A DNA stretch of 64,000 nt from an uncultured Bacilli bacterium (GCA_934098485.1 CAKOOH010000005.1:11617-75616), one strand, 5' to 3'. Positions 11,049-62,210 are shown, numbered from the stretch's first letter. Translations and numbers: made by a program. Notes: a model not told the origin generated them from the letters alone.

Positions 11049-11076
11049 ACACTTAAATGTGATAAAATTTAAGTGT
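11049..11076. promoter_or_regulatory. Perfect 10-bp inverted repeat ACACTTAAAT-n8-ATTTAAGTGT overlapping a TGTGATAAAAT -10-like element, a candidate AbiEi autorepressor operator
   Basis: Palindrome read directly, 16 nt upstream of the AbiEi start. Confidence 0.4.
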
Positions 11077-11091
11077 GAAAGGAAAAACGAT

Positions 11092-11679
11092 ATGGAATAT
11101 GAAAATAAAATTTTAAATTTATTTAAAAATGGTTATTTAATTACTAAAAATGTTACCGATAATAATATTCCTAGGATTTACCTTACTAAACTTATTAAAG
11201 AAAATAAAATAGAAAGAGTAAGTCGTGGAGTATATATTAAAAAGAATGTTTTAGTAGATGAATTTGTCGTATTACAAAGCAAAAGTAAATATGCCATTTA
11301 TTCTAATACAACAGCACTTTATTTACATGGACTTTCTAATAGAATTCCTATTAGATATGATATTACAATTAAAAGTGGGTATAAAGGTTCACTTCAAAAA
11401 GAAGATAATGTTAATTTATTTTATACAAAAAACGAATTATTAGATTTAGGAGTTATTAACTATAAACTAAATTCCGGTAATATTATTAAAGTTTATGATT
11501 TAGATAAAACTATTTGTGACATTATTAAAAATAAAAAGAAAATAGATGCAGAAATTTTTAATAAAGCTATTAGAGAATATTTTTATAGTCAAAAGAAAAA
11601 TACTTTAAAACTATATGAATATGCTAAAAAGATGAATATTTATAATAAGGTAAGAGATACTTTCGAGGTGCTTCAATGA
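11092..11679 (+). CDS. abiEi: AbiEi-family antitoxin/transcriptional regulator (type IV TA, abortive infection)
   Basis: N-terminal wHTH with the AbiEi-typical ...RVSRGVYIKK motif. The 4-nt ATGA overlap with the downstream toxin gene is typical of a TA operon. The ATG at 11092 has the ribosome-binding site AAAGGAAA. Confidence 0.7.
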   Translation: MEYENKILNLFKNGYLITKNVTDNNIPRIYLTKLIKENKIERVSRGVYIKKNVLVDEFVVLQSKSKYAIYSNTTALYLHGLSNRIPIRYDITIKSGYKGSLQKEDNVNLFYTKNELLDLGVINYKLNSGNIIKVYDLDKTICDIIKNKKKIDAEIFNKAIREYFYSQKKNTLKLYEYAKKMNIYNKVRDTFEVLQ

Positions 11680-12527
11680 TTAAAAATAGGGATAGTTTAA
11701 AAGCAAGAACGTCTAATTTAGCTAATAAAACTAATATTCCTAATAAATATTTAATTCAAAGCTTTATGTTTGAAGCTTTATTAAAAAGAATATCAATTTC
11801 TAAATATAAAGATAAATTTATAATTAAAGGTGGCCTCTTATTATCATCTATCTTTGGTGTAAACTTAAGAAGTACTATGGATTTAGATACCACTATAAAA
11901 GGATTATCACTGGATAGAGAAACCATTATTAAAGTTATTAATGATATTATTAGCATTGAAATAGACGATAATATCAAAATTGAAATAGAAAATATTAAAG
12001 ATATTAGAGAAGAAGAATTATATTCGGGTTTTAATGTCAATTTAAAAGCCGAATTCGATGGTTTGAAAACTAATTTAATGATTGATATAACTACAGGAGA
12101 TGTTATTACTTATAAAGAAGTTGAGTTTAAATATAATACCTTATTTGATAATGAAATCATCAATATTATGACTTATAATTTTGAAACTATACTAGCAGAA
12201 AAATTTGAAACAATAATTAGCAGAAATATAGATAATACTAGAATGAAAGATTATTATGATTTATATATGTTTGTTAATTTAAAATGGGATGATATTAATA
12301 AGGATACTTTAAGAAAAGCAATTATAAACACCGCTAAAAATCGTAAAACTTTAGATTACATAGATAATGCTAGTAAATATATAGAATTAATTAGTGATGA
12401 CTCAAGATTAAAATCTCTTTGGAATAGTTATAAAAGTAATTATGATTATGCAAAAAATATAGAGTTTGAAGATACAATATATGCTATTAAAACAATTGGC
12501 AAAATTGTTACATCAGTCGGAATTTAA
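11676..12527 (+). CDS. abiEii: AbiEii/AbiGii-family nucleotidyltransferase toxin (DUF1814)
   Basis: FIIKGGLLLSSIFGVNLRSTMDLDTT matches the GG...R.T.DLD nucleotidyltransferase signature of AbiEii. It is translationally coupled to AbiEi. Confidence 0.75.
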   Translation: MIKNRDSLKARTSNLANKTNIPNKYLIQSFMFEALLKRISISKYKDKFIIKGGLLLSSIFGVNLRSTMDLDTTIKGLSLDRETIIKVINDIISIEIDDNIKIEIENIKDIREEELYSGFNVNLKAEFDGLKTNLMIDITTGDVITYKEVEFKYNTLFDNEIINIMTYNFETILAEKFETIISRNIDNTRMKDYYDLYMFVNLKWDDINKDTLRKAIINTAKNRKTLDYIDNASKYIELISDDSRLKSLWNSYKSNYDYAKNIEFEDTIYAIKTIGKIVTSVGI

Positions 12528-12619
12528 GTGGTAAAAAGTGAAACTGGCTAAGAAAGAAACTAAAAACAACCTTCGAATATAAAAAACATATCATAAAATT
12601 AAAGAAGAAACGTAATCTT

Positions 12620-12672
12620 CTTTCTTTTCATAAGTATATCACATTGGGAGGGTAGTGTCATTAAAATAATAA
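12620..12672. repeat. 53-bp direct repeat, copy 2, carrying a 20-codon remnant of the RHH gene 5' end on the minus strand
   Basis: Identical to 10877-10929. Minus-strand translation gives MTLPSQCDILMKRKKITFLL*. Confidence 0.9.
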
Positions 12673-12774
12673 TGTAGTAATTTTAAAGTATATATATTAT
12701 TAATATAATGAAAAATACTAAGAATCATGGTATAATATTTCTAATTTAATTTGATAAATAAAGGAGGTATTTAA

Positions 12775-13587
12775 ATGGAAGAAATAACCTATAATAAAGT
12801 TGAAGATGAAAAAAGCCCCAAAATAAAACAGTTATATTGGGATATTGCCTTTGGTCTTCAAGACGTAGATGGATTAAAGCCATCTAAATATATGATTGAA
12901 TTATCAAAAGAACATATAAATGGGCAAAAAACGTATCATGAGGTTAAAGAAGAAATTACCTCTTATTATAAGATAAATTATGATAATCATGCTGACGATG
13001 ATGAAGAAGAAGCTGATGAAGTTTCTATCGCAATATACCAAATACTTAATAATAAATCTTTTAGATTTGATTATTTAACTTTAAAAAATTATCATCAAAG
13101 ATTATTTTGTAACTTAAATAAAGAAAAATATAATCCGGGCGTTTTTAGATTGTATAACATAACTAAAGACGAGCCAATTTTAAATGGTGATACAGTAAAC
13201 TATCAATCTTATGATATGATTGAAGAAACTTTAAAATATGATTTTAATGAAGAAGCGGCTCAAAATTATCTTGAGTTTACTGAAGAACAATTAATAAATC
13301 GTATTTGTGAGTTTACATCTAGAATATGGCAAGTACATCCTTTTCAAGAGGGTAATACAAGAACTACAGCTATTTTTATTCAAAAATATTTAAATAGCAT
13401 TGGATTTAAAGTAAACAACGAATTATTTAAAGATAATTCCCAATATTTTAGAAATGCTTTAGTAAGAGCAAATTACACAAATTATAGTAAAGGCATAAGT
13501 GCTGATACCAAATTCCTAAAAATGTTTTTTGAAAATTTATTATTATATAAAAATAATGAATTAAATAATGATGATTTAAAAATATAA
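12775..13587 (+). CDS. Fic/Doc-family protein with a degenerate active-site motif (HPFQEGNTRTT instead of HxFx(D/E)GNGRxxR)
   Basis: The Fic core motif is recognisable but with G-to-T and a missing second Arg. An extended -10 TGGTATAAT and the ribosome-binding site AAAGGAGG lie upstream. Confidence 0.65.
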   Translation: MEEITYNKVEDEKSPKIKQLYWDIAFGLQDVDGLKPSKYMIELSKEHINGQKTYHEVKEEITSYYKINYDNHADDDEEEADEVSIAIYQILNNKSFRFDYLTLKNYHQRLFCNLNKEKYNPGVFRLYNITKDEPILNGDTVNYQSYDMIEETLKYDFNEEAAQNYLEFTEEQLINRICEFTSRIWQVHPFQEGNTRTTAIFIQKYLNSIGFKVNNELFKDNSQYFRNALVRANYTNYSKGISADTKFLKMFFENLLLYKNNELNNDDLKI

Positions 13588-31019: not shown

Positions 31020-31679
31020 ATGAATAAAAACGTAATAACTGGTATTATACTAGGAATCATCGTTTTAATCTTGTGCTATATCGCATTTAATTGGGAAAAA
31101 GAAACTGTAATAGATGAAACTCCATCATATACTATTACTAATGATTCATTAAAATTCAAAAAAGAATTTGAAGCAAATAATGATAAGAAAAATAAAGTTA
31201 ATATTTCCATTAAAAATTATAGTACTGTTACATATTCATCATATGAAGAAATATTTAAGAAACTAGAATCAGATGAAAGTTATATTCTTTTCTTTGCATC
31301 AAGTACTGATGAAAATTCTCGAATAATGGCTTCTATCTTAGTTGATAAAGCCCTTACTTTAAAAGAAGATATTTATTATTTAGATATAACTAATGATGTT
31401 GACAAAAAAGAATTAACTAAAGATGGCAAAATTAAAACTATCAAAAAAGGTTCTGATAATTATTATGAATTAGTTAAAAAACTAAATGGTTATTTGCCAT
31501 CTTATGAAGGCCTTAAAGATGATACTATCAAAAGAGTATACATCCCTACAGTAGTTTTTGTATCTAAAGGCAAAATTATTAAAATGGTAAATATTCCATC
31601 TGAAATTGATAATAGAAAATATAGTAAAACTTTATCTGATGAAGAACTAAAAATATTAAGTGATGCTTTAAATGTTTAA
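31020..31679 (+). CDS. Membrane-anchored hypothetical protein (N-terminal TM, ~190-aa extracytoplasmic domain)
   Basis: Signal-anchor ITGIILGIIVLILCYIAF. It is followed by the terminator at 31681-31712. Confidence 0.5.
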   Translation: MNKNVITGIILGIIVLILCYIAFNWEKETVIDETPSYTITNDSLKFKKEFEANNDKKNKVNISIKNYSTVTYSSYEEIFKKLESDESYILFFASSTDENSRIMASILVDKALTLKEDIYYLDITNDVDKKELTKDGKIKTIKKGSDNYYELVKKLNGYLPSYEGLKDDTIKRVYIPTVVFVSKGKIIKMVNIPSEIDNRKYSKTLSDEELKILSDALNV

Positions 31680-31680
31680 A

Positions 31681-31712
31681 TAGAAAGTAAGAAAATACAC
31701 TTTCTATTTTTA
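31681..31712 (+). terminator. Rho-independent terminator (AGAAAGT-aagaaaatac-ACTTTCT + T-run)
   Basis: Read directly. An extended -10 TGATATAAT follows at about 31720-31729. Confidence 0.55.
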
Positions 31713-31753
31713 TTTTCTTTTGATATAATTACCTTAGAATGCGGAGGCCTGTT

Positions 31754-33418
31754 ATGAAAAAAGGATTTACCTTAATTGAAATGATAATATCTGTTACTCT
31801 TCTTGCATTTATTGCCGTTATAATTATGATTAATCTTAATAAAAATATTAAAGACCAAGAAGCTAAAGAGTATGCTGAATTTGTTGAGAAAGTTAAAGCT
31901 GCCGCTAATATTTATATGGCCGCTAATCCTGATTCAGAAGCATTTGCCAAAGACGAAAACGGTTATAATATTATTAGTATTGAACTTTTAGAAGAGTCTG
32001 GGTTATTAAGTGCCGATTCTCTTATTGATCCTGAAACAAATCTTCGTTTAAGTGATGAATCTACCGATGTTTCTAAAAAATATATTAAAATTTATGATGA
32101 TGAAAAATTAGAAAATAATGAAAAATCCGAAGCGACTTTAATTGAATATCCTGCTACAGGAGAAATCAATAAATATATAAGAACTGTAGAATATGAAATG
32201 AATGGCTTTGGTTCTTGTAACACTCAAAAACCAGTTGTAGGAGAAACTATCAGTATATGTAATCCTACTGATGATAATGCTACCTTTGTTAAATGGTTTT
32301 TAGATAGTGAATTAAGTAGTGAAGGTCCTAATGGTAATGACGAATATAAACCAATGGAAGATGTAAAATTTTATGCTAAATGGTATAAAAATAAAAGTTC
32401 AACTATTAGAGCGATGAAAATAGAAAGTGCCACTTCTAATCATGATGATTACAAAGTAAAAGTAACTTTAGATATTATCGATGTTTATGGTGGAAAATTA
32501 AAAGTATGTCTAAGTAAAACCAACAATATGGATACTTGTCAAAACTGGGAAGAAATTGATTCTGCTAAAGATTCTGTAACTACATATACTAAAGAAGTAA
32601 ATTTACAAGAAATGTTTGATTCTAGTTACACCACTGGTTCTGGAAAAAGTGCCAAATTATATGCTTTTGTTCAAAATACGGCATATGAAGAAGCCTTAAA
32701 AGAACGTAGAAGTACGACTAATTTAGTTGCATCAGCATATAAAACCTATAAAATATATTTATTTTGTACTGAAGTAACTGTAACATCAGAGGGAACTTAT
32801 GGTGATTGCTCAGCCCAATGTGGTGGTGGCACTAAAAGCAGAATGAATAAAGTTAAAGACAAATATTATGATGCATCATATATATTATGTGCTGATTCTA
32901 AAGAAGAAACAAGCTGTAATACAATGGATTGTTGTTCTAGTACCGTTAAGCAAGAAGGAACATATGGTGCTTGCTCAGCCAAATGCGGTGGTGGTACACA
33001 AAGTATGACTATCAATTATGTATCTGCATATGATAGCAGCAAAGTTTGTAGTTCAAAAACTGAAACCAAACAGTGTAATACCCAAGATTGTTGTTCATCA
33101 ACATATGCATCATACTCATATGGTGCTTGCTCAGCATCTTGTGGATCAGGATCGCAAAGTGTAACCATAAATTATTATTCATCATATGATAACCGCTATT
33201 GTAGTAGTGAATCCACTAGTCAGACATGCAATGCTGGAAGTTGTTGCCCGGATGGATATAAGGAAGCGTATGGACAATTTGGATGTAGTAATCCTAATAT
33301 TGGTTGTTATAAGTTAAGATACAGAACCAATGAATGCTGGGAATGCAATTCATGTGGTAATTGGGGTGAACAAGTTTGGACTAACAATGGTTATTGTATA
33401 AAATGGGTTTGCCCATAG
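31754..33418 (+). CDS. Type IV prepilin-like protein (class III signal MKKG|FTLIEM) with a large C-terminal domain ending in three thrombospondin type-1-like Cys repeats plus a Cys-rich cap
   Basis: Prepilin peptidase motif G|FTLIEM with Glu at +5 and a 20-aa hydrophobic helix. Three repeats contain CSAxCGGGTxS(R/M)...C...CNTxDCC. The ribosome-binding site GGAGG 7 nt before the ATG at 31754 is preferred over the ATG at 31739. Confidence 0.7.
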   Translation: MKKGFTLIEMIISVTLLAFIAVIIMINLNKNIKDQEAKEYAEFVEKVKAAANIYMAANPDSEAFAKDENGYNIISIELLEESGLLSADSLIDPETNLRLSDESTDVSKKYIKIYDDEKLENNEKSEATLIEYPATGEINKYIRTVEYEMNGFGSCNTQKPVVGETISICNPTDDNATFVKWFLDSELSSEGPNGNDEYKPMEDVKFYAKWYKNKSSTIRAMKIESATSNHDDYKVKVTLDIIDVYGGKLKVCLSKTNNMDTCQNWEEIDSAKDSVTTYTKEVNLQEMFDSSYTTGSGKSAKLYAFVQNTAYEEALKERRSTTNLVASAYKTYKIYLFCTEVTVTSEGTYGDCSAQCGGGTKSRMNKVKDKYYDASYILCADSKEETSCNTMDCCSSTVKQEGTYGACSAKCGGGTQSMTINYVSAYDSSKVCSSKTETKQCNTQDCCSSTYASYSYGACSASCGSGSQSVTINYYSSYDNRYCSSESTSQTCNAGSCCPDGYKEAYGQFGCSNPNIGCYKLRYRTNECWECNSCGNWGEQVWTNNGYCIKWVCP

Positions 33419-33430
33419 AAAGAAGGTATT

Positions 33431-34228
33431 ATGAAAAATAATAAAAAAGTGTTTATAATTGTAGGATTTCTAATATTCCTTTTTCTAAGTTTAATAATTA
33501 TCCTAATATTAAATAAAAAAAATATTTTAAATCCTAATCCCCAAACCACAACTAAAGAAATAGAACTCGATCCTAAAAACTATGCTCCCGCCATTGCTAG
33601 TTCACTAAGTTATTTTAATAATTGCAATACTGGTTACAAGTTTGATTTTGGCAATAAAGACAAAATAGAATACAATGACTTATCTACGGATTTTATATAT
33701 AATACAGTATACAATTACTTATATAATCAAAATAAAATAAAAATAACTAAAAGTGATAATCCTAATAAAGAAGCCATATTATCCGAAACTAATTATATAG
33801 AAGAAGAATTTTCTTTAGATGCTTTTCTATCTGCTTATCAGTACTTATATGGAATTAATTCCCAAGACATTAAATATGAAAATAGTTTTAAAATAGGGCA
33901 GTATACATTTACTTTAAATAACAATAAATTCTATACTAAAAAAACATCAAGTCCAGATTGCTTTTCTAATAATACGACAAATTATTTATTAGTAAACCAA
34001 AAATTAGGCAAAGATTTTATAGAAATAACCTATATAGTTTATTATTCCAAACATGAATATGCAGATAATGTAATGAATGAGTATGCTGTGAATATCGATA
34101 ATGGCGAAATTATTTGTAAAACATCTAACGTAAACAGTACGGAAAACATTGATAAATTGACTAAATATAGCTTTACTTTCATCAAAAAAGGAAATAATTA
34201 TATTTTTAATAACATAACAAAATCATAA
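33431..34228 (+). CDS. Membrane-anchored partner protein A1 (paralogue of 34242-35027)
   Basis: N-terminal TM. Motifs shared with its paralogue: CNTGY.FDF, ...KYSFTFIKKGNNYIFNN. No homology is recognised. Confidence 0.5.
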   Translation: MKNNKKVFIIVGFLIFLFLSLIIILILNKKNILNPNPQTTTKEIELDPKNYAPAIASSLSYFNNCNTGYKFDFGNKDKIEYNDLSTDFIYNTVYNYLYNQNKIKITKSDNPNKEAILSETNYIEEEFSLDAFLSAYQYLYGINSQDIKYENSFKIGQYTFTLNNNKFYTKKTSSPDCFSNNTTNYLLVNQKLGKDFIEITYIVYYSKHEYADNVMNEYAVNIDNGEIICKTSNVNSTENIDKLTKYSFTFIKKGNNYIFNNITKS

Positions 34229-34241
34229 TAAGGAATTTACT

Positions 34242-35027
34242 ATGAAAAGACAAAACTATAAAAAATTAAAAATAACTTTAATTACCGGTTTATTATTTAT
34301 TTTAACTGTGGGCTTTGGCCTTATTTATCTTCTTAATTCTAAAGAAAAACAGCCCATTTTCGATAATTCCAAAGTTACTCATAAAATAGATAACTCTGAT
34401 ATAACAACTTTATTAAACAAGATAACTTCGTCTTATGGTACTTGTAACACCGGCTATGCCTTAGATTTCAAAGAAAAAAATGTTCTTTTAGCAAATGAAT
34501 TAGATGAAAATTTTAAATATAATATAATTTATAATATTTTAAAAAGAAATAATAAGATAGTTAAGCAGTACAAAACTAAAAATGAACAAACCACTGAAGA
34601 ACCAGCATCTTTTTTCGATAAAACTAAATACACCGAAATATTAACTATCAGTGATTTTACAGAAGTTTATACAAGTTTATTTGGTTATAAACCAGAAGAA
34701 ATGCTCCCATCCTTTAAATTAGGTAACAAAATATATTCTTCCAATGGTAGTAGTTATTCGGCAAATATTGATGAAGCCGAAGAAGAAGATTGTACTTACA
34801 GTACCAAATATTCTATCTACTTTGCCACTTCTTCTAAAGAAGAAATTACTTTAGAATATATTTTATATTTTGAAACCAATAATAAAGCTTATACTGACGC
34901 TGATTTCAAAAATTCAGTATGTGGTTCTAGCAAAGTAAACGATTATAAAGATAATTTTATAAAATACCGTTTTACCTTTAAAGGAAATAATAATAATTAC
35001 GTTTTAAAAAACGTAAGTTTAGTTTAA
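34242..35027 (+). CDS. Membrane-anchored partner protein A2
   Basis: Paralogue of A1 (CNTGYALDF, KYRFTFKGNNNNYVLKN) with an N-terminal TM. Confidence 0.5.
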   Translation: MKRQNYKKLKITLITGLLFILTVGFGLIYLLNSKEKQPIFDNSKVTHKIDNSDITTLLNKITSSYGTCNTGYALDFKEKNVLLANELDENFKYNIIYNILKRNNKIVKQYKTKNEQTTEEPASFFDKTKYTEILTISDFTEVYTSLFGYKPEEMLPSFKLGNKIYSSNGSSYSANIDEAEEEDCTYSTKYSIYFATSSKEEITLEYILYFETNNKAYTDADFKNSVCGSSKVNDYKDNFIKYRFTFKGNNNNYVLKNVSLV

Positions 35028-35043
35028 TTAGGAAATATGTAAA

Positions 35044-36711
35044 ATGGAAAATAAGTTAAAAAAAGGGTTTACCTTAATTGAAATGATTATATCTGTTACT
35101 CTTCTTGCTTTTATTGCCGTTATAATTATGATTAATCTTAATAAAAATATTAAAGACCAAAAAGCTAAAGAGTATGCTGAATTTGTTGAGAAAGTTAAAG
35201 CTGCCGCTAATATTTATATGGCCGCTAATCCTGATTCAGAAGCATTTGCCAAAGACGAAAACGGTTATAATATTATTAGTATTGAACTTTTAGAAGAGTC
35301 TGGGTTATTAAGTGCCGATTCTCTTATTGATCCTGAAACAAATCTTCGTTTAAGTGATGAATCTACCGATGTTTCTAAAAAATATATTAAAATTTATGAT
35401 GATGAAAAATTAGAAAATAATGAAAAATCCGAAGCGACTTTAATTGAATATCCTGCTACAGGAGAAATCAATAAATATATAAGAACTGTAGAATATGAAA
35501 TGAATGGCTTTGGTTCTTGTAACACTCAAAAACCAGTTGTAGGAGAAACTATCAGTATATGTAATCCTACTGATGATAATGCTACCTTTGTTAAATGGTT
35601 TTTAGATAGTGAATTAAGTAGTGAAGGCCCTAATGGTAATGACGAATATAAACCAATGGAAGATGTAAAATTTTATGCTAAATGGTATAAAAACAAAAGT
35701 TCAACTATTAGAACGATGAAGATCGAAAGCGCTACATCTAACCATAATGATTACAAAGTAAAAGTAACTTTAGATATTATCGATGTTTATGGCGGAAAAT
35801 TAAAGGTTTGCATTAATAAAACCAGCAACGTAAATACTTGTCAAAACTGGGAAGAAATTGATTCCGTTAAAGATTCTGTAACAACGTATACCAAAGAAGT
35901 AAATTTACAAAAAATGTTTGGCTATAGTTATAAAACTGGCTCTGGTAAAAGTGCTACATTATATGCTTTTGTTCAAAATGCTGCTTATGATGATGCTGTA
36001 AAAGATAATAGAATTGCAACTAATTTAGTTGCATCAGCAAATAAAACTTATAAAATATATTTATTTTGTAGCGAGTTAACCGTAACAAGCACAGGAAAAT
36101 ATAGCGAATGTTCAGCCAAATGTGGTGGAGGTACTAAAAGTAGAACAAATAAAGTTAAGGACAAATACTATAGTACTTCTTATGTAACATGTGCCGATAA
36201 AACTGAAAAAACTAGTTGCAATACAGAAGGTTGCTGCTCAAAGACCGTTAAACAAGAAGGATTATATGGTGCCTGCTCAGCCGAATGCGGTGGCGGTACT
36301 CAAAGTAGAACCATCACCTATGTATCTGCGTTTGATAGCAGCATACCATGTGGTTCTAAAACTGAAAGTAAAAAATGTAATACCGACGATTGTTGTTCTT
36401 CAGTTTATGCATCATATTCTTATGGAACGTGTTCATCATCATGTGGTGGCGGATGGCAAAATATAACTATAACTTATTATTCATCATTTGACAATCGCTA
36501 TTGTAGTGAAGAAACCACTAATCAGGACTGCAATTCTGGAAGTTGCTGCCCAGATGATTATTATGAATTGTATAGTGATCGTTTTAGTTGTAATCCTGTT
36601 TGTTATACATTAAGACCAGCAGATAATATTTATGAAAATATTCATCATACTTGCCGCGATGGATCGAAGTATAGTGAAGATGGGTATTGTTATTATTATA
36701 TTTGTCCATAA
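35044..36711 (+). CDS. Type IV prepilin-like protein, paralogue 2, with thrombospondin type-1-like repeats
   Basis: MENKLKKG|FTLIEM. The first ~215 residues are almost identical to 31754-33418. The C-terminus has CSAKCGGGTKSR, CSAECGGGTQSR and CSSSCGGGWQN repeats. Confidence 0.7.
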   Translation: MENKLKKGFTLIEMIISVTLLAFIAVIIMINLNKNIKDQKAKEYAEFVEKVKAAANIYMAANPDSEAFAKDENGYNIISIELLEESGLLSADSLIDPETNLRLSDESTDVSKKYIKIYDDEKLENNEKSEATLIEYPATGEINKYIRTVEYEMNGFGSCNTQKPVVGETISICNPTDDNATFVKWFLDSELSSEGPNGNDEYKPMEDVKFYAKWYKNKSSTIRTMKIESATSNHNDYKVKVTLDIIDVYGGKLKVCINKTSNVNTCQNWEEIDSVKDSVTTYTKEVNLQKMFGYSYKTGSGKSATLYAFVQNAAYDDAVKDNRIATNLVASANKTYKIYLFCSELTVTSTGKYSECSAKCGGGTKSRTNKVKDKYYSTSYVTCADKTEKTSCNTEGCCSKTVKQEGLYGACSAECGGGTQSRTITYVSAFDSSIPCGSKTESKKCNTDDCCSSVYASYSYGTCSSSCGGGWQNITITYYSSFDNRYCSEETTNQDCNSGSCCPDDYYELYSDRFSCNPVCYTLRPADNIYENIHHTCRDGSKYSEDGYCYYYICP

Positions 36712-36930
36712 AAGAAATAATAAAATAAATAAAGATTCTATAGAAATAATATGCAGTTTATTATTCCAAGCATGAATTTATAGATGTTACGTTAATTAAG
36801 TAACTCATAAAGTAAATATTAATTAATTTCCAATAATATAAAGAGTGTTAGACAGAATTCTAATGCTTTTTCTTTACATTTATATTAAAAAAACTCTTGT
36901 TTTATTATATAATATTAATAGGTGATAAAA

Positions 36931-39333: not shown

Positions 39334-39756
39334 ATGAAGAAAAATAATGGGTTTACATTAATTGAACTTTTAGCCGTTGTTGTTTTACTAGGAGTTTTAG
39401 TAACAATAGTAGTAACGCAAGGAACAGATATTTTTCATACAACGAAAAATAAAATTAGCAAGATAAATGAAAAAAACTTAAAAGACTCTGCTAGTTCTTT
39501 AGCTGATTCTATTCTTATGTGTGAACTAGATGATAATATATATAATGAATTAAATTTAGACCAAGGTAGTCGCAGCTGTTCTTATTTAAAAAATAAATTA
39601 TTTAATGATGGAGTGGAAGTAAGCGTTGAAAGTCTTAAAAAGTTAGATCTTTTTGAAGATGTATCAAATATTTGTAATGGTAACATGACTATTAAGGCAA
39701 ATGAAAGTGATTATAAATTAACTATTACATTTAATGAAGATTTAATATGCAAGTAG
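39334..39756 (+). CDS. Type IV prepilin/pseudopilin-like protein (MKKNNG|FTLIELLAVVVLLGVL)
   Basis: Class III signal peptide with Glu at +5. 140 aa. Confidence 0.7.
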   Translation: MKKNNGFTLIELLAVVVLLGVLVTIVVTQGTDIFHTTKNKISKINEKNLKDSASSLADSILMCELDDNIYNELNLDQGSRSCSYLKNKLFNDGVEVSVESLKKLDLFEDVSNICNGNMTIKANESDYKLTITFNEDLICK

Positions 39757-52383: not shown

Positions 52384-52905
52384 ATGAAAAATAAAAAAGG
52401 TTTTACTTTAGTAGAATTATTAGCAGTTATCGTTGTTTTAGCAATTATCATGATTATCGCTGTACCATCTGTATTAAATAGTATGACAGATGCTCGTAGA
52501 AACTCATTTGCTGTTTATGGTGAAAAACTAATTAACTCAGCACAAGCACAATCTCAAGCAACTGCCATGGTTAATGGAACAATAAAAAAATGTTATACTG
52601 TTAGCGAATTAGTTGATGGTGCTCATGGTACATACGAAGGCTACGTTCAAAGACTAGTTCATGGTGAAAAAGAATATTATTTCTTAACGCTAAGAGATGC
52701 TAACTATGCTGCCGTAAATATACTTGCTCAAGAACTTGAAGCAGTAAAATCAGGCGTACAAACTACATATAAAACCCATGTAATTGTTGGAAGAGACACA
52801 ATTGATGCTGATACAGAAGGAAAGAAAGTTGACTTTACAAAATGTCCTGAAACACCTACTGTATCTGAGACTGATATTCCAAACACAACAACAACAACTT
52901 CTTAA
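52384..52905 (+). CDS. Type IV pilin-like protein (MKNKKG|FTLVELLAVIVVLAII), Thr-rich C-terminus
   Basis: Class III signal peptide with Glu at +5. Ribosome-binding site AGGAGAGAG. Confidence 0.7.
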   Translation: MKNKKGFTLVELLAVIVVLAIIMIIAVPSVLNSMTDARRNSFAVYGEKLINSAQAQSQATAMVNGTIKKCYTVSELVDGAHGTYEGYVQRLVHGEKEYYFLTLRDANYAAVNILAQELEAVKSGVQTTYKTHVIVGRDTIDADTEGKKVDFTKCPETPTVSETDIPNTTTTTS

Positions 52906-57047: not shown

Positions 57048-58673
57048 ATGCATATGAATATAGTCAGTGACAAAATTGGTACGTTTTTAAACTATGTTAA
57101 AAAGGATAAGAAGCTTTTGCTTGTGTTAATAATTACTATTTTAGTTTTACTTTCTTTAATATTAAACATTGCTTTTAGTTTTCTTTTACAAAAGACCGAA
57201 AAACCTAGTACAAATATTACTGTCGGCGATTTAAAATATAGTATGGTAATTAACAATGTTAATTTAAATTCTTCGGTAGGAACAAAACTACCGACTAACA
57301 CAATCATTGGTGATCGAATAATAGTGTTAAAAAGTAAAAAAACCGAGCAGTTTAATATTGTATTAACATCAAATAACGATAAAAGCACTTATTATGAAAT
57401 AATTTATCATGTTTGTTCCGATGAAAACTGTACTAGTTTTATCGATACTCCCGAAACAATTCAAATCGCGTACCATGTTGATTCACTTTCTCCCATTACC
57501 GATTTAATCGCATCTAATGAATCAAGAACAATCACCATTGTAACTGATAATCAATCTACTCAAGATTATTACGTAGAAGTGGATTTAAATGTTGGATATA
57601 AACATAATAAATTAGTCCTTCAAAAACAGATAACTAATAAATTTACGCCGCCATATTTAAGTGGTAACTTAGATATAATTGCGACCGTTAATGGGGAAGA
57701 AATAGATGGATTTCCTACGGAGCCAGATTATGAAACAAATTTTGTCTGCAAAGAAAATGATGGTACTATTTCTAAGGCCAAAGGTATTTTTAGATACACA
57801 GCCGCTAATGGTTGGGAATTTGATGTTTATGGTCTAACTAGAAATCATACAACTTGTTATATTTCATTTACAAGTACAGAGTATGTAGTAACTTATGAAC
57901 TATTATCAACTAGACTAGATTGTGCTAATATTACGGCTAAACCAGACGAACCGATAATTACCTATACTGGAAACTGTGATATAACTTCAGAAACCGAAAA
58001 AACTGATGGAAGTCACAGATGGAAATTAAAATTTACCACAAGTGGCACTCTTTCTATAAGAGGCCAAATGTTTGTTGATGCATTCCTAGTAGGTGGCGGC
58101 CAAGGAGGAGCCAAAAAAGGAGTTGGTGGTGATGGTGGAAAAACAATTAGATATAATACCGTTAGACTTGCTAATGATGATACTTACACTGTAACAATTG
58201 GTGCCGGAGGCGCTGGTGGTGTAGAAGGTAGCACGAATGGTAAATTAGGAAGCCCTAGCACATTGATTTCCAGGACTTCAGCCGAAAACTTTTCTTTAAC
58301 TTCCGCAAATGGTTATGATACTAACGCTGGCGGTGCTGGTGGGTCAGACGATGATGCTAGTAATAATAAACCAGGGCAGTGCCGTACAGACAAATACTCA
58401 GCTGAATTTCACGATCCAACTTCTGGTATTTATTATGCCGGTGGCGGTGGTGGAAGTGGTGGCCAAAAAAGCTGGTACTCTAGCGGTCAATATTGGTATA
58501 GGGACATTGCTGGCGGTTCATCATGCGGTGATGGTGCTAGTGCCGGAAGTAGTGATGGGGAAAATCCTGCCGATCCAGCCGAAGATAATACCGGTGCTGG
58601 TGGCGGTGGCGGTCGTTTTGCTGGAGGTACTGGTGGTAGTGGAATTATTATAATTCGTGATACTAGAGCGTAA
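57048..58673 (+). CDS. Membrane-anchored protein with a C-terminal ALK/LTK-type glycine-rich domain (PF12810-like)
   Basis: N-terminal TM. The C-terminal 280 aa carry GGG-rich blocks (VGGGQGGAKKGVGGDGG, AGGGGGSGGQ, GAGGGGGRFAGGTGGSG) interspersed with a WEFDVYG start, as in glycine-rich domains. Confidence 0.6.
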   Translation: MHMNIVSDKIGTFLNYVKKDKKLLLVLIITILVLLSLILNIAFSFLLQKTEKPSTNITVGDLKYSMVINNVNLNSSVGTKLPTNTIIGDRIIVLKSKKTEQFNIVLTSNNDKSTYYEIIYHVCSDENCTSFIDTPETIQIAYHVDSLSPITDLIASNESRTITIVTDNQSTQDYYVEVDLNVGYKHNKLVLQKQITNKFTPPYLSGNLDIIATVNGEEIDGFPTEPDYETNFVCKENDGTISKAKGIFRYTAANGWEFDVYGLTRNHTTCYISFTSTEYVVTYELLSTRLDCANITAKPDEPIITYTGNCDITSETEKTDGSHRWKLKFTTSGTLSIRGQMFVDAFLVGGGQGGAKKGVGGDGGKTIRYNTVRLANDDTYTVTIGAGGAGGVEGSTNGKLGSPSTLISRTSAENFSLTSANGYDTNAGGAGGSDDDASNNKPGQCRTDKYSAEFHDPTSGIYYAGGGGGSGGQKSWYSSGQYWYRDIAGGSSCGDGASAGSSDGENPADPAEDNTGAGGGGGRFAGGTGGSGIIIIRDTRA

Positions 58674-58698
58674 ATAAAAAACATTGGGTGATTTTAAT

Positions 58699-60990
58699 AT
58701 GAGAAATTTTCCATATAAAAGAAAAATAATATATATAGTTTTAATTATCATGGGAATTATTACATTAACTGGTACAACCTATGCGATATTTACAACAACA
58801 ACTACGCAAGAAGGAACAAATACAATTAATCTTTTAAAGTGCTTAGAATTAGAGTTTTCTAATCAAAAAAATATTATCAATTTAACAAATACCTATCCTA
58901 TGCGTGATGAAAGAGGAAGTAAAAATCCTCCATATACATTTACTTTAACAAATAAATGTGGAATATATTTAGAATATTCAATCGGATTAGCGGTAAACAA
59001 AAATAACACCTTAGAAGACAAATATGTTAAAACAATTTTTTCCCTTTCAAATAATGATGGTGAACCTGTTTTATTAACAGACAGACAAGAAGGAAACACT
59101 TATAATGATAGAAAAACATATATTTTTAGAAATGATGGTTTAGAAAACGGGGAGAGCAAGGATTACAAATTAGTATTGTGGCTAGATGGAACTGCCAGTG
59201 ACTCTGAGATGCAAAAAAGTTTCACTGGTAATATAATAATTAATACAAAGCCAATTAAAAATGAAGATCAAAAAACAATAACTGTCGATTTAAATGGTGG
59301 AAATTTATTACAAGAATTAAACGAAGTATATAGAGAAGGAATGAAAATAAAATTACCCGTGCCAGCCAAAGCCGGATATCATTTTGATAAATGGGAAATA
59401 ACTGCGGGCGATGCTACCATTGATAAAAATAACTATTTAACTATTGGCAAAGAGAATATCACTTTAAAAGCCTATTATGCCGGTGGTGTAACTCTTACAT
59501 TAGAATTAAATGGTGGAAATACTACACAAACCTTTAAAGAGGATTATGGTCAAGGTGAAACAATAACGTTAATAGAACCAACAAAAGAAGGCTATTTATT
59601 TGGCGGTTGGAAAATCATAAGTGGAAATGGAATAATAAATGGTAGCACCTTAACAATGAATACCGAAAGTGTCGTAATAGAGGCAATTTGGAAAAAACAA
59701 GTAACTTTAACAGTAGAACTTAATGGTGGGAGAACTACGCAATCTTTTAAAGATGAATACTTTGAAGGCGATAAGATAACTCTAAATGAACCAACAAAAG
59801 AAGGTTATTTATTTGGTGGTTGGAAAATCACCAGCGGTGATGGAATAATAAATGGAAATATATTAACAATAAGTGCAGAAAACATAAAACTAGAAGCAAC
59901 TTGGAAAAAACGAGTAACTTTAACTGTCGATTTAAACGGTGGCATTACTACTCAAAATTTTAAATCAGCATATGGTGAAAAAGATGAAATTACCTTAACC
60001 ATTCCCACAAGATCGAATATTGCATTTATCGGTTGGGAGATAGTATCTGGGGATGCTACAATAAATAATAATAAACTAATCTTTGGATCAAACGATGTAA
60101 GCATTAGAGCCTTATGGCGAGAAACATGGACTTTTGACTTTACGGGTTCGGAGCAAACATTTACTGTGCCATATAGAGGCGTGTATAAACTAGAAATATG
60201 GGGAGCGCAAGGTGGAAGTGTTTCTTATTCAGGAACCTATAATGGTGGTTATGGGGGATATTCAAATGGTAGTATTAATTTAACTAAGAACGAAGTACTA
60301 TATATTAATGTAGGCGGTTCTGGAAGTGGTGGAGTAGCAACATCTTCATATTCCGGAGGATATAATGGTGGTGGCTCTACTAATGAAACTAGGGGCACAG
60401 ATCATTATCATGCATCAGGTGGTGGCGCTACGCATATTGCCAATGTTTCTGGAATATTATCATCTCTATCATCAAAAACTAGTAATATTTTAATTGTTGC
60501 TGGCGCTGGCGGTGGCGGCTACCGACATACTGAATCAGAAAAATATTCTAGTATAGGCGGTTCTGGTGGTGGCATACAAGGCACTGATTCAACTACCAAT
60601 GGTAGTAATGGTAAACAAGGATTAGGTGGATATCAAACCGCTGGTGGGAAATATGAAGGTGGCAGTGGTTCTAGCAGTATTTTTGGAAGTTTTGGCCAAG
60701 GTGGAACGCCAGGTAACTCTTGGGGCTCTGCTGGTGGCGGCGGCTTTTATGGCGGTGGTGCATCTAATGGCGATGTTGGATCAAGCGGTAATAGCGGTGG
60801 TGGCGGTGGCTCTGGTTATATTGGAAATTCGCTTCTTTCAGATAAAGTAATGTATTGTTATAATTGTACATCATCATCTGAAAATGCCACAAAAACCATA
60901 TCAACTACATGTACGAATTCATCAGCCACAGAAAACTGTACAAAACAAGGTAACGGCTATGCAAGAATAACATTTATAAATTTATCATAA
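58699..60990 (+). CDS. Secreted/surface protein: SipW-cognate-type signal + TasA-like N-domain + Flg_new (Listeria-Bacteroides) repeats + ALK/LTK-type glycine-rich domain + Cys-containing tail
   Basis: N-terminus MRNFPYKRKIIYIVLIIMGIITLTGTTYAIFTTTTTQEG. Repeated LNGG.TTQ.F...GE.ITL.EPTKEGYLFGGWKI.SG Flg_new units from about 59278 to 60120. Glycine-rich-domain blocks follow: WTFDFTG...YINVGGSGSGG...HASGGGATHI...IVAGAGGGGY...GSAGGGGFYGGGASNG...NSGGGGGSGYIGNS. Confidence 0.7.
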   Translation: MRNFPYKRKIIYIVLIIMGIITLTGTTYAIFTTTTTQEGTNTINLLKCLELEFSNQKNIINLTNTYPMRDERGSKNPPYTFTLTNKCGIYLEYSIGLAVNKNNTLEDKYVKTIFSLSNNDGEPVLLTDRQEGNTYNDRKTYIFRNDGLENGESKDYKLVLWLDGTASDSEMQKSFTGNIIINTKPIKNEDQKTITVDLNGGNLLQELNEVYREGMKIKLPVPAKAGYHFDKWEITAGDATIDKNNYLTIGKENITLKAYYAGGVTLTLELNGGNTTQTFKEDYGQGETITLIEPTKEGYLFGGWKIISGNGIINGSTLTMNTESVVIEAIWKKQVTLTVELNGGRTTQSFKDEYFEGDKITLNEPTKEGYLFGGWKITSGDGIINGNILTISAENIKLEATWKKRVTLTVDLNGGITTQNFKSAYGEKDEITLTIPTRSNIAFIGWEIVSGDATINNNKLIFGSNDVSIRALWRETWTFDFTGSEQTFTVPYRGVYKLEIWGAQGGSVSYSGTYNGGYGGYSNGSINLTKNEVLYINVGGSGSGGVATSSYSGGYNGGGSTNETRGTDHYHASGGGATHIANVSGILSSLSSKTSNILIVAGAGGGGYRHTESEKYSSIGGSGGGIQGTDSTTNGSNGKQGLGGYQTAGGKYEGGSGSSSIFGSFGQGGTPGNSWGSAGGGGFYGGGASNGDVGSSGNSGGGGGSGYIGNSLLSDKVMYCYNCTSSSENATKTISTTCTNSSATENCTKQGNGYARITFINLS

Positions 60991-61211: not shown

Positions 61212-62210
61212 ATGGATAATTATAATCCACCATTTACAATTACTAATACAATGCTTGATTATATCTCATCAATAATGGAAAAAATCGGTAAAATTGATAA
61301 TTATACTTATTTGGAAAAAATGCCTAATCTTAGAAGAAATAATAAAATTAAATCTATTCATTCATCTTTAGCGATTGAAGCAAATTCATTATCACTATCT
61401 GAAGTTAAAGATGTAATTGCTGGCAAATATGTTTTAGGCCCCCAAAAAGAAATCCAAGAAGTATTAAATGCCTACAAAGCCTATGAAATGATTAAAGAAG
61501 TTAATCCTTATTCTTTAAAAGATTTAAAAATGGTTCACGGCGTCATGACTGAAAAAACCATTATACTATCTGGAAAATTTAGAACTGGTGGCGAAGGTGT
61601 TTTTGATAGTAAAGGACACTGCATTCATGTCTGTCCGCCGGCAAAACAAGTAGAACCTTTAATGGTTCAACTGTTTGCTTGGATTAAAAATAACAAAGAT
61701 ACTATCCATCCTTTAATATTATCATCAGTATTCCATTATGAATTCGTATTTATTCATCCATTTGCTGATGGTAATGGAAGAATGGCTAGATTATGGCAAA
61801 ATATATTATTAACAAACTGGAAAGATTTTTTCGAATATTTACCAATTGAAACAAGAATAAAAGAATATCAAAGTGAATACTATGCTGCAATTTCCCATTG
61901 TCATGAAGCAGCAAGTTCAAATGAATTTATTGAGTTTATGTTAAAAATGATAGATGAAGTACTTGAAAGCTTAGTAAAAGTGACAAGAGAAAATCTAACT
62001 GAAAAAGATATTAACGTTAATAAACTACTAAATATAATGACTATAAATGTACCCATGAGCGCTTATGAAATAATGGAAAAATTAGAAATAAAATCCAAAG
62101 AAACTTTAAGATCAAAATATTTAGATCCAGCAATTGAAGAAGGCTTAATTCTTTTAACAATTCCTGATAAACCAACTAGTAAAAACCAAATGTATTATAA
62201 AGCAAAATAA
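61212..62210 (+). CDS. Fic-family protein with the canonical HPFADGNGRMARLW motif
   Basis: Complete HxFx(D/E)GNGRxxR motif. An N-terminal SLAIEAN segment resembles, but does not exactly match, the inhibitory (S/T)xxxE(G/N) helix. Confidence 0.8.
   Translation: MDNYNPPFTITNTMLDYISSIMEKIGKIDNYTYLEKMPNLRRNNKIKSIHSSLAIEANSLSLSEVKDVIAGKYVLGPQKEIQEVLNAYKAYEMIKEVNPYSLKDLKMVHGVMTEKTIILSGKFRTGGEGVFDSKGHCIHVCPPAKQVEPLMVQLFAWIKNNKDTIHPLILSSVFHYEFVFIHPFADGNGRMARLWQNILLTNWKDFFEYLPIETRIKEYQSEYYAAISHCHEAASSNEFIEFMLKMIDEVLESLVKVTRENLTEKDINVNKLLNIMTINVPMSAYEIMEKLEIKSKETLRSKYLDPAIEEGLILLTIPDKPTSKNQMYYKAK

Follow-up and report, generated by a model that had tools for sequence, protein, structure and literature searches.

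In the pilE/pilS system of Neisseria, gene conversion takes place between pilin copies that have a conserved 5' part and a variable 3' part, and the genes for PilE1 and PilE2, the two major pilins of Streptococcus sanguinis, are tandem paralogues. PilE1 and PilE2 have an identical N-terminal α1 helix, the differences between them being concentrated C-terminally, and a mosaic pilus surface has been proposed (PMC10628169). In modular pilins, a pilin module carries at least one further domain of a kind not confined to type IV pilus biology (PMC8179133; Raynaud et al., 2021), as in S. sanguinis PilB, with a vWA module, and PilC, with a lectin module (PMC8179133; PMC9934059). In Dataset S1 of PMC8179133, a pilin with two TSP1 repeats (IPR012902-IPR000884-IPR000884) appears once and a pilin with Listeria-Bacteroides repeats nine times. 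Published accounts of the Neisseria opa genes (PMC13183285) and of a Staphylococcus aureus tandem paralogue cluster (PMC2568036) describe surface-protein paralogues with inter-locus movement of segments, patchwork alleles and changes in copy number. Here we describe a pair of tandem genes for predicted modular pilins in a 64,000-nucleotide (nt) stretch of DNA (the window) from an uncultured, low-GC, Erysipelotrichaceae-like Bacilli bacterium of the human gut (GCA_934098485.1, CAKOOH010000005.1:11617-75616). The stepped identity between these genes is probably the mark of recombination.

The locus consists of four co-oriented genes in the order gene 1, X1, X2 and gene 2, with tsf and a gene for a membrane protein of 219 amino acids (aa; 31020-31679) as 5' neighbors and murG as the 3' neighbor. 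The material with which it was compared, designated by L numbers, consisted throughout of contigs from short-read metagenome assemblies, of the same species unless stated. The features needed for comparing the two pilin genes, numbered from the first nucleotide of the window, are:

31754-33418, + strand: gene 1, predicted modular type IV pilin of 554 aa (Pfam, TIGR02532, AlphaFold2, Foldseek and a profile search of the PDB)
31757-32410, + strand: first copy of a near-identical tract, encoding the signal peptide to the end of the Flg_new domain
31860-32325, + strand: 466-nt exact core, the longest exact run in the pairwise alignment, equal to 35162-35627
33431-34228, + strand: partner gene X1, 265 aa, with a predicted N-terminal membrane anchor and extracytoplasmic α/β domain, orphan family
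34242-35027, + strand: partner gene X2, 261 aa, a paralogue of X1 by sequence comparison
35044-36711, + strand: gene 2, 555 aa, likewise a predicted modular type IV pilin and sharing the architecture of gene 1 (Pfam, TIGR02532)
35059-35712, + strand: second copy of the near-identical tract, from the pairwise alignment
35271-35439, + strand: pilin-head block of uncertain state; in the window it is the "A" allele, equal to gene 1 31969-32137, and in L002, L035, L036, L037 and L038 a "C" allele

The predicted layout of the gene 1 product is a prepilin signal and α1 helix (residues 1-57), a small pilin head (58-148), a Flg_new domain (149-214), a β-sandwich (217-335), three TSP1 repeats (~341-500) and a Cys-rich region (501-554). 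Like PilB and PilC of S. sanguinis, the two proteins would combine a class III signal peptide, a small pilin module and a grafted adhesion-type domain in a monoderm. However, the predicted stalk here has four types of module (Flg_new, the β-sandwich, three to four thrombospondin repeats [TSRs] and the Cys-rich end). There are also two to three apparently recombining tandem paralogues, interleaved with an orphan membrane-protein family, and their surroundings are housekeeping genes (tsf, murG) rather than a pil operon. The identical N-termini and C-terminal differences of gene 1 and gene 2 resemble those of PilE1 and PilE2, although the latter are small major subunits, whereas the proteins here are of 555 aa and the identical part reaches through an extra domain. 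The opa genes and the S. aureus cluster differ in protein family from the present genes, whose host is an uncultured gut member of the Bacilli known here from metagenomes.

Alignment of gene 1 (31754-33418) with gene 2 (35044-36711) bore out the claim, made in an earlier note on this DNA, that a near-identical 5' part precedes diverged 3' domains. Between the two tract copies, 6 of 654 sites differ (31765, 31786, 31807, 31859, 32326 and 32392), and the core is exact over 466 nt. Divergence was spread along the alignment far more unevenly than by chance (maximum chi-square 170; the 10,000 permutations did not exceed 29), and the uniform divergence that would have spoken against the claim was not seen. 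The same note described identity as decaying progressively. Identity is indeed lower toward the 3' end, but the profile is stepped, with three plateaus of ~1%, ~15-25% and ~50% divergence. Its main break is at 32411 (codon ~220), where the boundary between Flg_new and the β-sandwich is predicted; there was no significant trend in alignment columns 749-1560 (r = 0.06, p = 0.08), and a second significant break was found at column 1560. From 32411 onward, identity was about 78-85% (0.87-0.67 in 60-nt windows); it was 0.62-0.48 over the final ~150 nt and about 50% over the last 100 nt.

Synonymous divergence (dS) followed the same steps. Over codons 8-219 it was 0.033 (211 codons, with four synonymous changes and one non-synonymous change), as against 0.53 for codons 219-345, 0.79 for codons 345-505 and saturation (>1) at the 3' end. 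Because dS is 0.033 in the tract but 0.5-0.8 downstream, protein constraint cannot account for the 5' identity, and the contrast indicates that homogenization of DNA, not selection at the protein level, produced the near-identical tract. Downstream of the tract, the ratio of non-synonymous divergence (dN) to dS was 0.17-0.58, with dN climbing steadily toward the 3' end; positive selection is therefore not shown.

Two contigs, L003 and L035, were assembled by MEGAHIT (k141); in them, the two pilin genes match exactly over at most 108 and 109 nt, respectively. Because these are below k = 141, both contigs are k-mer consistent. In the leader/α1N segment, gene 1 and gene 2 of L035 differ by 3.6%, whereas gene 2 of L003 and gene 2 of L035 differ by 24%. 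Conversely, in the head, β-sandwich and TSR1, orthologues were 0-4% apart and paralogues 15-30%. Across TSR3 and the C-terminus, gene 1 and gene 2 differ by 4-5% in L003 and by 22-47% in L035, while Flg_new showed 0-1.5% differences in all comparisons between these contigs. Depending on the segment, paralogues thus group by genome or by locus, and the limits of the tracts vary by strain (L003, L035 and the profiles of nine loci). The combination of near-zero dS inside the tract (0.033) with old divergence outside it (0.53-0.79, >1) is the pattern of concerted evolution. The segment trees conflict even where the contigs are k-mer consistent, and exchange between the two pilin loci by recombination is therefore well supported at the level of the population.

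We consider it probable, with reasonable confidence, that these tandem modular pilin paralogues with stepped identity are a recombination mosaic, formed by non-allelic gene conversion plus exchange of alleles between strains. Segments of one pilin copy would overwrite the other copy by non-allelic gene conversion, and alleles would also be swapped between strains. Converted segments would be left with almost no synonymous divergence, whereas adjoining segments would keep the old divergence of the paralogues. In the strain background of the window, the leader/α1 and Flg_new parts would have been homogenized; in another background (L003), it would be the 3' tip instead. Exchange between the copies appears to be ongoing. 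Of the two mechanisms proposed earlier for the 5' identity, gene conversion agrees with the dS contrast and with the mosaic gene 1/gene 2 alleles found elsewhere, but cassette shuffling does not fit, both copies being complete. The idea of a constant shaft with variable tips as a design also fails: in L003 it is the 5' end of the paralogues that is diverged, by 24-30%, and the 3' tip that differs by 4-5%, and the gene 2 head is 30% different in k-mer-consistent contigs of the window's own strain background.

The four-gene layout recurs in more than eight independent metagenome contigs, from several samples and different assemblers, and in this sense the duplication is real. At least 12 mosaic protein alleles were distinguished, combining leader types a, b, c and d, heads A, C and D, middles 1 and 2, and tails x, x', y and z (tail z having four TSRs, in a protein of 597 aa); several of these alleles were found on two to six contigs each. 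In two contigs from Hadza gut metagenomes (L031, 4414-7038; L033, 4057-6519) there is a third pilin gene of 597 aa with four TSRs and a different Cys-rich tail, accompanied by a third partner gene of 273 aa that is 48% identical to X1. Gene 2 of these three-gene Hadza loci has a distinct gene-1-like body, 94-98% identical to gene 1 and no copy of it. Because these bodies are gene-1-like yet distinct, gene-1-like alleles of gene 2 do exist in nature.

At the other extreme, L038 (7001-8656, 4x coverage) has a single gene, in which the 5' end of gene 1 is fused to the body of gene 2, and X1 and X2 are missing; its flanks show no differences from the window in 10.4 kb. Such a fusion could have arisen by deletion between the direct repeats, or it could be a shortcut taken by the assembler. 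Pilin and partner copy number varies within the species, and the comparison across strains that had been proposed in the earlier note thus revealed both copy-number variation (two, three or one fused pilin gene) and varying tails. Its warning that the repeats make the locus prone to deletion and assembly error was also apt: some loci have three pilin genes and one contig a single fused gene, a partner gene survives as a relic of 57 nt, and some contigs break off within the repeat. L036 and L037, which come from different samples and assemblers, have the same first nucleotide, window position 33313, 105 nt before the stop codon of gene 1; this common start suggests a population-level branch point in the gene 1 tail. 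An exact-pattern scan of metagenome contigs of the Joint Genome Institute for the gene 2 leader gave no matches, and so no independent check of the linkage between leader and head block.

Several observations weigh against a recombination mosaic. All of the data come from short-read metagenome assembly, and repeats of this type are where assemblers create chimeras. Assemblies of the same background differ solely at copy-distinguishing sites, with 0-1 other single-nucleotide polymorphism (SNP) in 8-17 kb. For the head blocks of the two genes, the states (A,A) and (C,C) were found only in the window and in "MERR22 ... scaffold" assemblies, whereas MEGAHIT contigs were always (A,C). The apparent donor switches between gene 1 and gene 2 inside single homogenized stretches (L004, L030, L001 and L032). 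Finally, no genes for type IV pilus machinery, such as a prepilin peptidase or PilB/PilC-type proteins, were found among the scanned open reading frames (ORFs) of the window or the precomputed Pfam calls of its flanks, nor beside the related pilin arrays in L006, L009 and L013.

Among the alternatives, assembly collapse survives best. It holds that the true genome is L035-like, i.e., that gene 2 has the 30%-diverged block at 35271-35439 and gene 1 has A and G at 32224 and 32230, and that a short-read scaffolder popped bubbles and threaded one consensus through both copies; the 466-nt identity would then be artificial, while the near-identity on either side would stay real. We give this an even chance. 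The A and C alleles of the head block differ at 51 of 169 nt (30%), and L002, L035, L036, L037 and L038 match the window over 8-12 kb except for the C block in gene 2 (and, in L002 and L035, two gene 1 SNPs at 32224 and 32230), which speaks for collapse. L001 has one difference from the window in 17.6 kb, at the copy-distinguishing site 32326, and L030 has the C block in both pilin genes; the window, L001, L030 and L035 differ from each other only at copy-distinguishing sites, yet present three different "homogenized" states. Similarly, all 61 differences in 13.2 kb between L003 (MEGAHIT) and L004 (scaffold) are at copy-distinguishing sites. The direction of the donor switches within single identical stretches, five times in L032, and such alternation weighs toward collapse because it is expected from independent bubble popping and not from one conversion tract. 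In the window, what differences remain are no more than ~105 nt from the edges of the repeat, and shared runs of 60-108 nt would act as graph junctions at k = 55. The order of ENA accessions suggests, by inference only, that both sets of assemblies may derive from the same samples.

On the other side, MEGAHIT contigs span both genes only where the repeat is not homogenized. Because MEGAHIT cannot assemble through a homogenized repeat, these contigs are a biased sample, and their agreement is partly a matter of ascertainment. The gene 2 allele of the window (P0008) is present on four long contigs, and many Hadza alleles (P0005 and P0006; 23 member sequences) combine a b leader and an A block with a body distinct from that of gene 1. 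In addition, the L002 contig ends ~141 nt past the C block, as would happen if the sample also contained an A-block path that has T and A at the counterparts of 32224 and 32230. That identical runs are bounded by the borders of shared runs was considered as evidence for an artefact but rejected, since it is true by construction under either model.

The unbroken 466-nt identity is thus either a very recent conversion or a bubble collapse, the two being about evenly balanced, with a slight lean toward the artefact. The near-identity flanking the head block (four differences in ~212 nt on one side and four in 270 nt on the other) is real, because it is seen in k-mer-consistent contigs. As a practical lesson, perfect identity within repeats of a few hundred bases in metagenome-assembled genomes (MAGs) should not be taken at face value.

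If the differing states were taken as biological, they could reflect a contingency system, in which segment-wise conversion between two co-expressed TSR-tipped pilin genes, frequent and in both directions, would join with an occasional deletion or fusion to reshuffle the head and tip modules in an otherwise clonal population of a gut commensal. This would explain the states (A,A), (A,C) and (C,C) and the gene 1/gene 2 fusion on backgrounds with 0-1 SNP per 10 kb, but we regard it as rather doubtful. It is unlikely that the identity goes back to a single recent partial duplication or replacement, in which an older paralogue received the 5' 650 nt of the other gene in one event, with no continuing exchange. 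The one sharp step at 32411, with few differences upstream, is what such an event would leave. However, the tracts differ by strain (at the 3' end in L003, as far as ~nt 1400 in the Hadza loci, and interrupted by a diverged block in L035), and the tails change over at several breakpoints; because strains have different tracts and breakpoints, several events are needed.

Programmed antigenic variation of the Neisseria pilE/pilS kind, with one expressed pilin gene rewritten at high frequency from donor cassettes, seems very unlikely. The conserved 5' and variable 3' parts, the many mosaic alleles and the differing block states on backgrounds with ~0 SNPs per 10 kb do recall that system, but the last of these, the variable state, can be explained by assembly. 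Moreover, neither copy is truncated: start codon, ribosome-binding site and class III signal peptide are present in both, and the two lie in one apparent operon, unlike the promoterless truncated silent cassettes of Neisseria. A scan with a hidden Markov model of the family found no truncated silent copies in the window, and no G-quadruplex (G4) motif (G3+N1-7 x4) was present on either strand of the whole window. The suggestion of a cassette system thus found no support, and antigenic variation at this locus is hypothetical. Purifying selection alone, with a slowly evolving 5' part (signal peptide, α1 helix and conserved domain) and freely drifting tips, is scarcely credible and was rejected on dS as the cause of the 5' identity: although α1 is the assembly interface in all type IV pilins (PMC10628169) and the steady 3' rise in dN fits, synonymous sites in the 5' part are identical too (dS 0.033 versus 0.5-0.8), the same region is 24-30% diverged between the L003 paralogues, and the head block has two alleles 30% apart.

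For the locus as a whole, the recombination mosaic is preferred. The leaders, MKKG/FTLIEMIISV in gene 1 and MENKLKKG/FTLIEMIISV in gene 2, have the prepilin motif (Gly, F at +1, E at +5 and a hydrophobic stretch), with matches to Pfam N_methyl (23.5 and 27.3 bits; cut-off 21.2) and TIGR02532 (24.1; cut-off 16.3). Flg_new (PF09479) and TSP1 (PF19028, PF19030 and PF00090) domains come after the N_methyl motif, the Pfam domains being above their gathering cut-offs: TSP1_spondin scored 43 and 54.7 bits (cut-off 41), TSP1_ADAMTS 31.1 and 29.9 (23.8) and TSP_1, in gene 2, 27.3 (21.6). Because a pilin module is fused to domains that are not specific to type IV pilus biology (Flg_new and TSP1), gene 1 and gene 2 are predicted to encode modular pilins sensu Raynaud et al. 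(2021). The family is an uncharacterized member of that known class.

The AlphaFold2 model of the gene 1 product (predicted local distance difference test [pLDDT] 82.9) has the long α1 helix (residues 7-57) and small globular head of a type IV pilin, the α/β head (60-148) being of lower confidence and the Cys-rich end poorly predicted. The TSR region (pLDDT 80-93) is modeled as the elongated three-stranded TSR fold, and Foldseek against the PDB matched it to properdin (6rus, E = 1e-6) and thrombospondin-1 (7yyk, 1lsl and 3r6b, probability 1.0). A profile search of PDB sequences likewise returned thrombospondin-1, properdin and the N-termini of Geopilin and PilA. The repeats have a CSxxCGGG motif and about six Cys each. 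Their likeness to the TSRs of eukaryotic thrombospondin-1 and properdin thus extends to TSP1 models above cut-off, the CSxxCGGG motif and a predicted fold matching 1lsl, 3r6b, 7yyk and 6rus at probability 1.0; however, identity to the PDB structures is 13-22%, and the context is a bacterial pilin. The WxxW Trp ladder, which is a typical TSP1 feature but not part of the Pfam definition, was absent, its Trp being replaced (e.g., GTYGDCS): the residues before CSxxCGGG are GTYGD, GTYGA and YSYGA. More distant relatives carry W at the position before CSxxCGGG in their consensus. Searches of the literature on bacterial TSP1 repeats found nothing specific.

The proteins would be assembled into a pilus and act as adhesins, and at 555 aa they are probably low-abundance tip pilins. 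If pilus-borne, they would be a thrombospondin-repeat adhesin family on type IV pili of uncultured human-gut Bacilli, with an orphan partner protein and a recombining multi-copy locus, and would offer a route to study how little-known commensals attach to host matrix or glycans and vary that interface.

The partner genes are diverged throughout, as had been claimed: X1 and X2 share 26-28% amino-acid identity, with dS saturated at ~1.5. Neither has a Pfam or NCBIfam match, and their family is small, with 46 matching cluster representatives among 1.84 billion proteins. An AlphaFold2 model of X1 (pLDDT 89.8) consists of a membrane anchor and an α/β ectodomain, for which no PDB fold was found at E ≤ 0.001, the best being weak NTF2-like matches. 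The family accompanies large pilin gene arrays in MAGs of distant gut Bacilli and Erysipelotrichaceae. In three such regions (L009, 4219-11993; L013, 4068-13117; L006, 6300-12103), two to three large TSR-type pilin genes (700-950 aa) are interleaved with partner-family genes, amid housekeeping genes. Two further features lie at the borders of the locus:

31681-31753, + strand: control region 5' of gene 1, as read from the sequence itself; the preceding gene is followed by a hairpin and a T-run, then by a TATAAT box (31724-31729) and the ribosome-binding site GGAGG (31744-31748)
36731-36785, + strand: remnant of a partner-type gene, decayed and situated in the gap from gene 2 to murG; over 57 nt it matches the X1 3' region at 84% identity, and it would encode YAVYYSKHEFID

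The 57-nt X1-like relic implies that a former partner gene was lost from the spacer between gene 2 and murG. In the Hadza loci, the third pilin gene and third partner gene stand at the position of the relic, between gene 2 and murG.

Although a longer ORF for gene 1 begins at 31739, the real start is the ATG at 31754, the methionine of MKKGF, in agreement with database gene calls (P0001, 554 aa); it lies 5 nt from the GGAGG ribosome-binding site. A scan for promoters and terminators was uninformative in DNA of 28% GC, with 52 sites found versus 41 expected. Gene 2 has a ribosome-binding site, AGGAAA, at 35030-35035, and is probably co-transcribed with X2, because the gap between them is only 16 nt. 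The gene at 31020-31679 for the 219-aa membrane-anchored protein is conserved and always lies 5' of the Cys-rich pilin genes. Its product matches PedC/BrcD thioredoxin-like disulfide isomerases weakly, below threshold (E = 9e-5; 22 bits versus a cut-off of 120), and is without a CxxC motif.

Elsewhere in the window there are two more small genes with prepilin N_methyl motifs, at 39334-39756 (140 aa) and 52384-52905 (173 aa), dispersed among housekeeping genes (queH/ftsY and near a ylbD-like gene, respectively) and outside any pil operon. At 57048-60990 are genes for two adjoining large proteins with glycine-rich domains (Gly_rich_2; ALK_LTK_GRD), the second of which also has three Flg_new/InlB B-repeat domains, a domain type common to the pilins. 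An AbiEi/AbiEii toxin-antitoxin pair followed by a Fic-domain protein is encoded at 11059-13587, and a second Fic protein at 61212-62210, near the end of the window.

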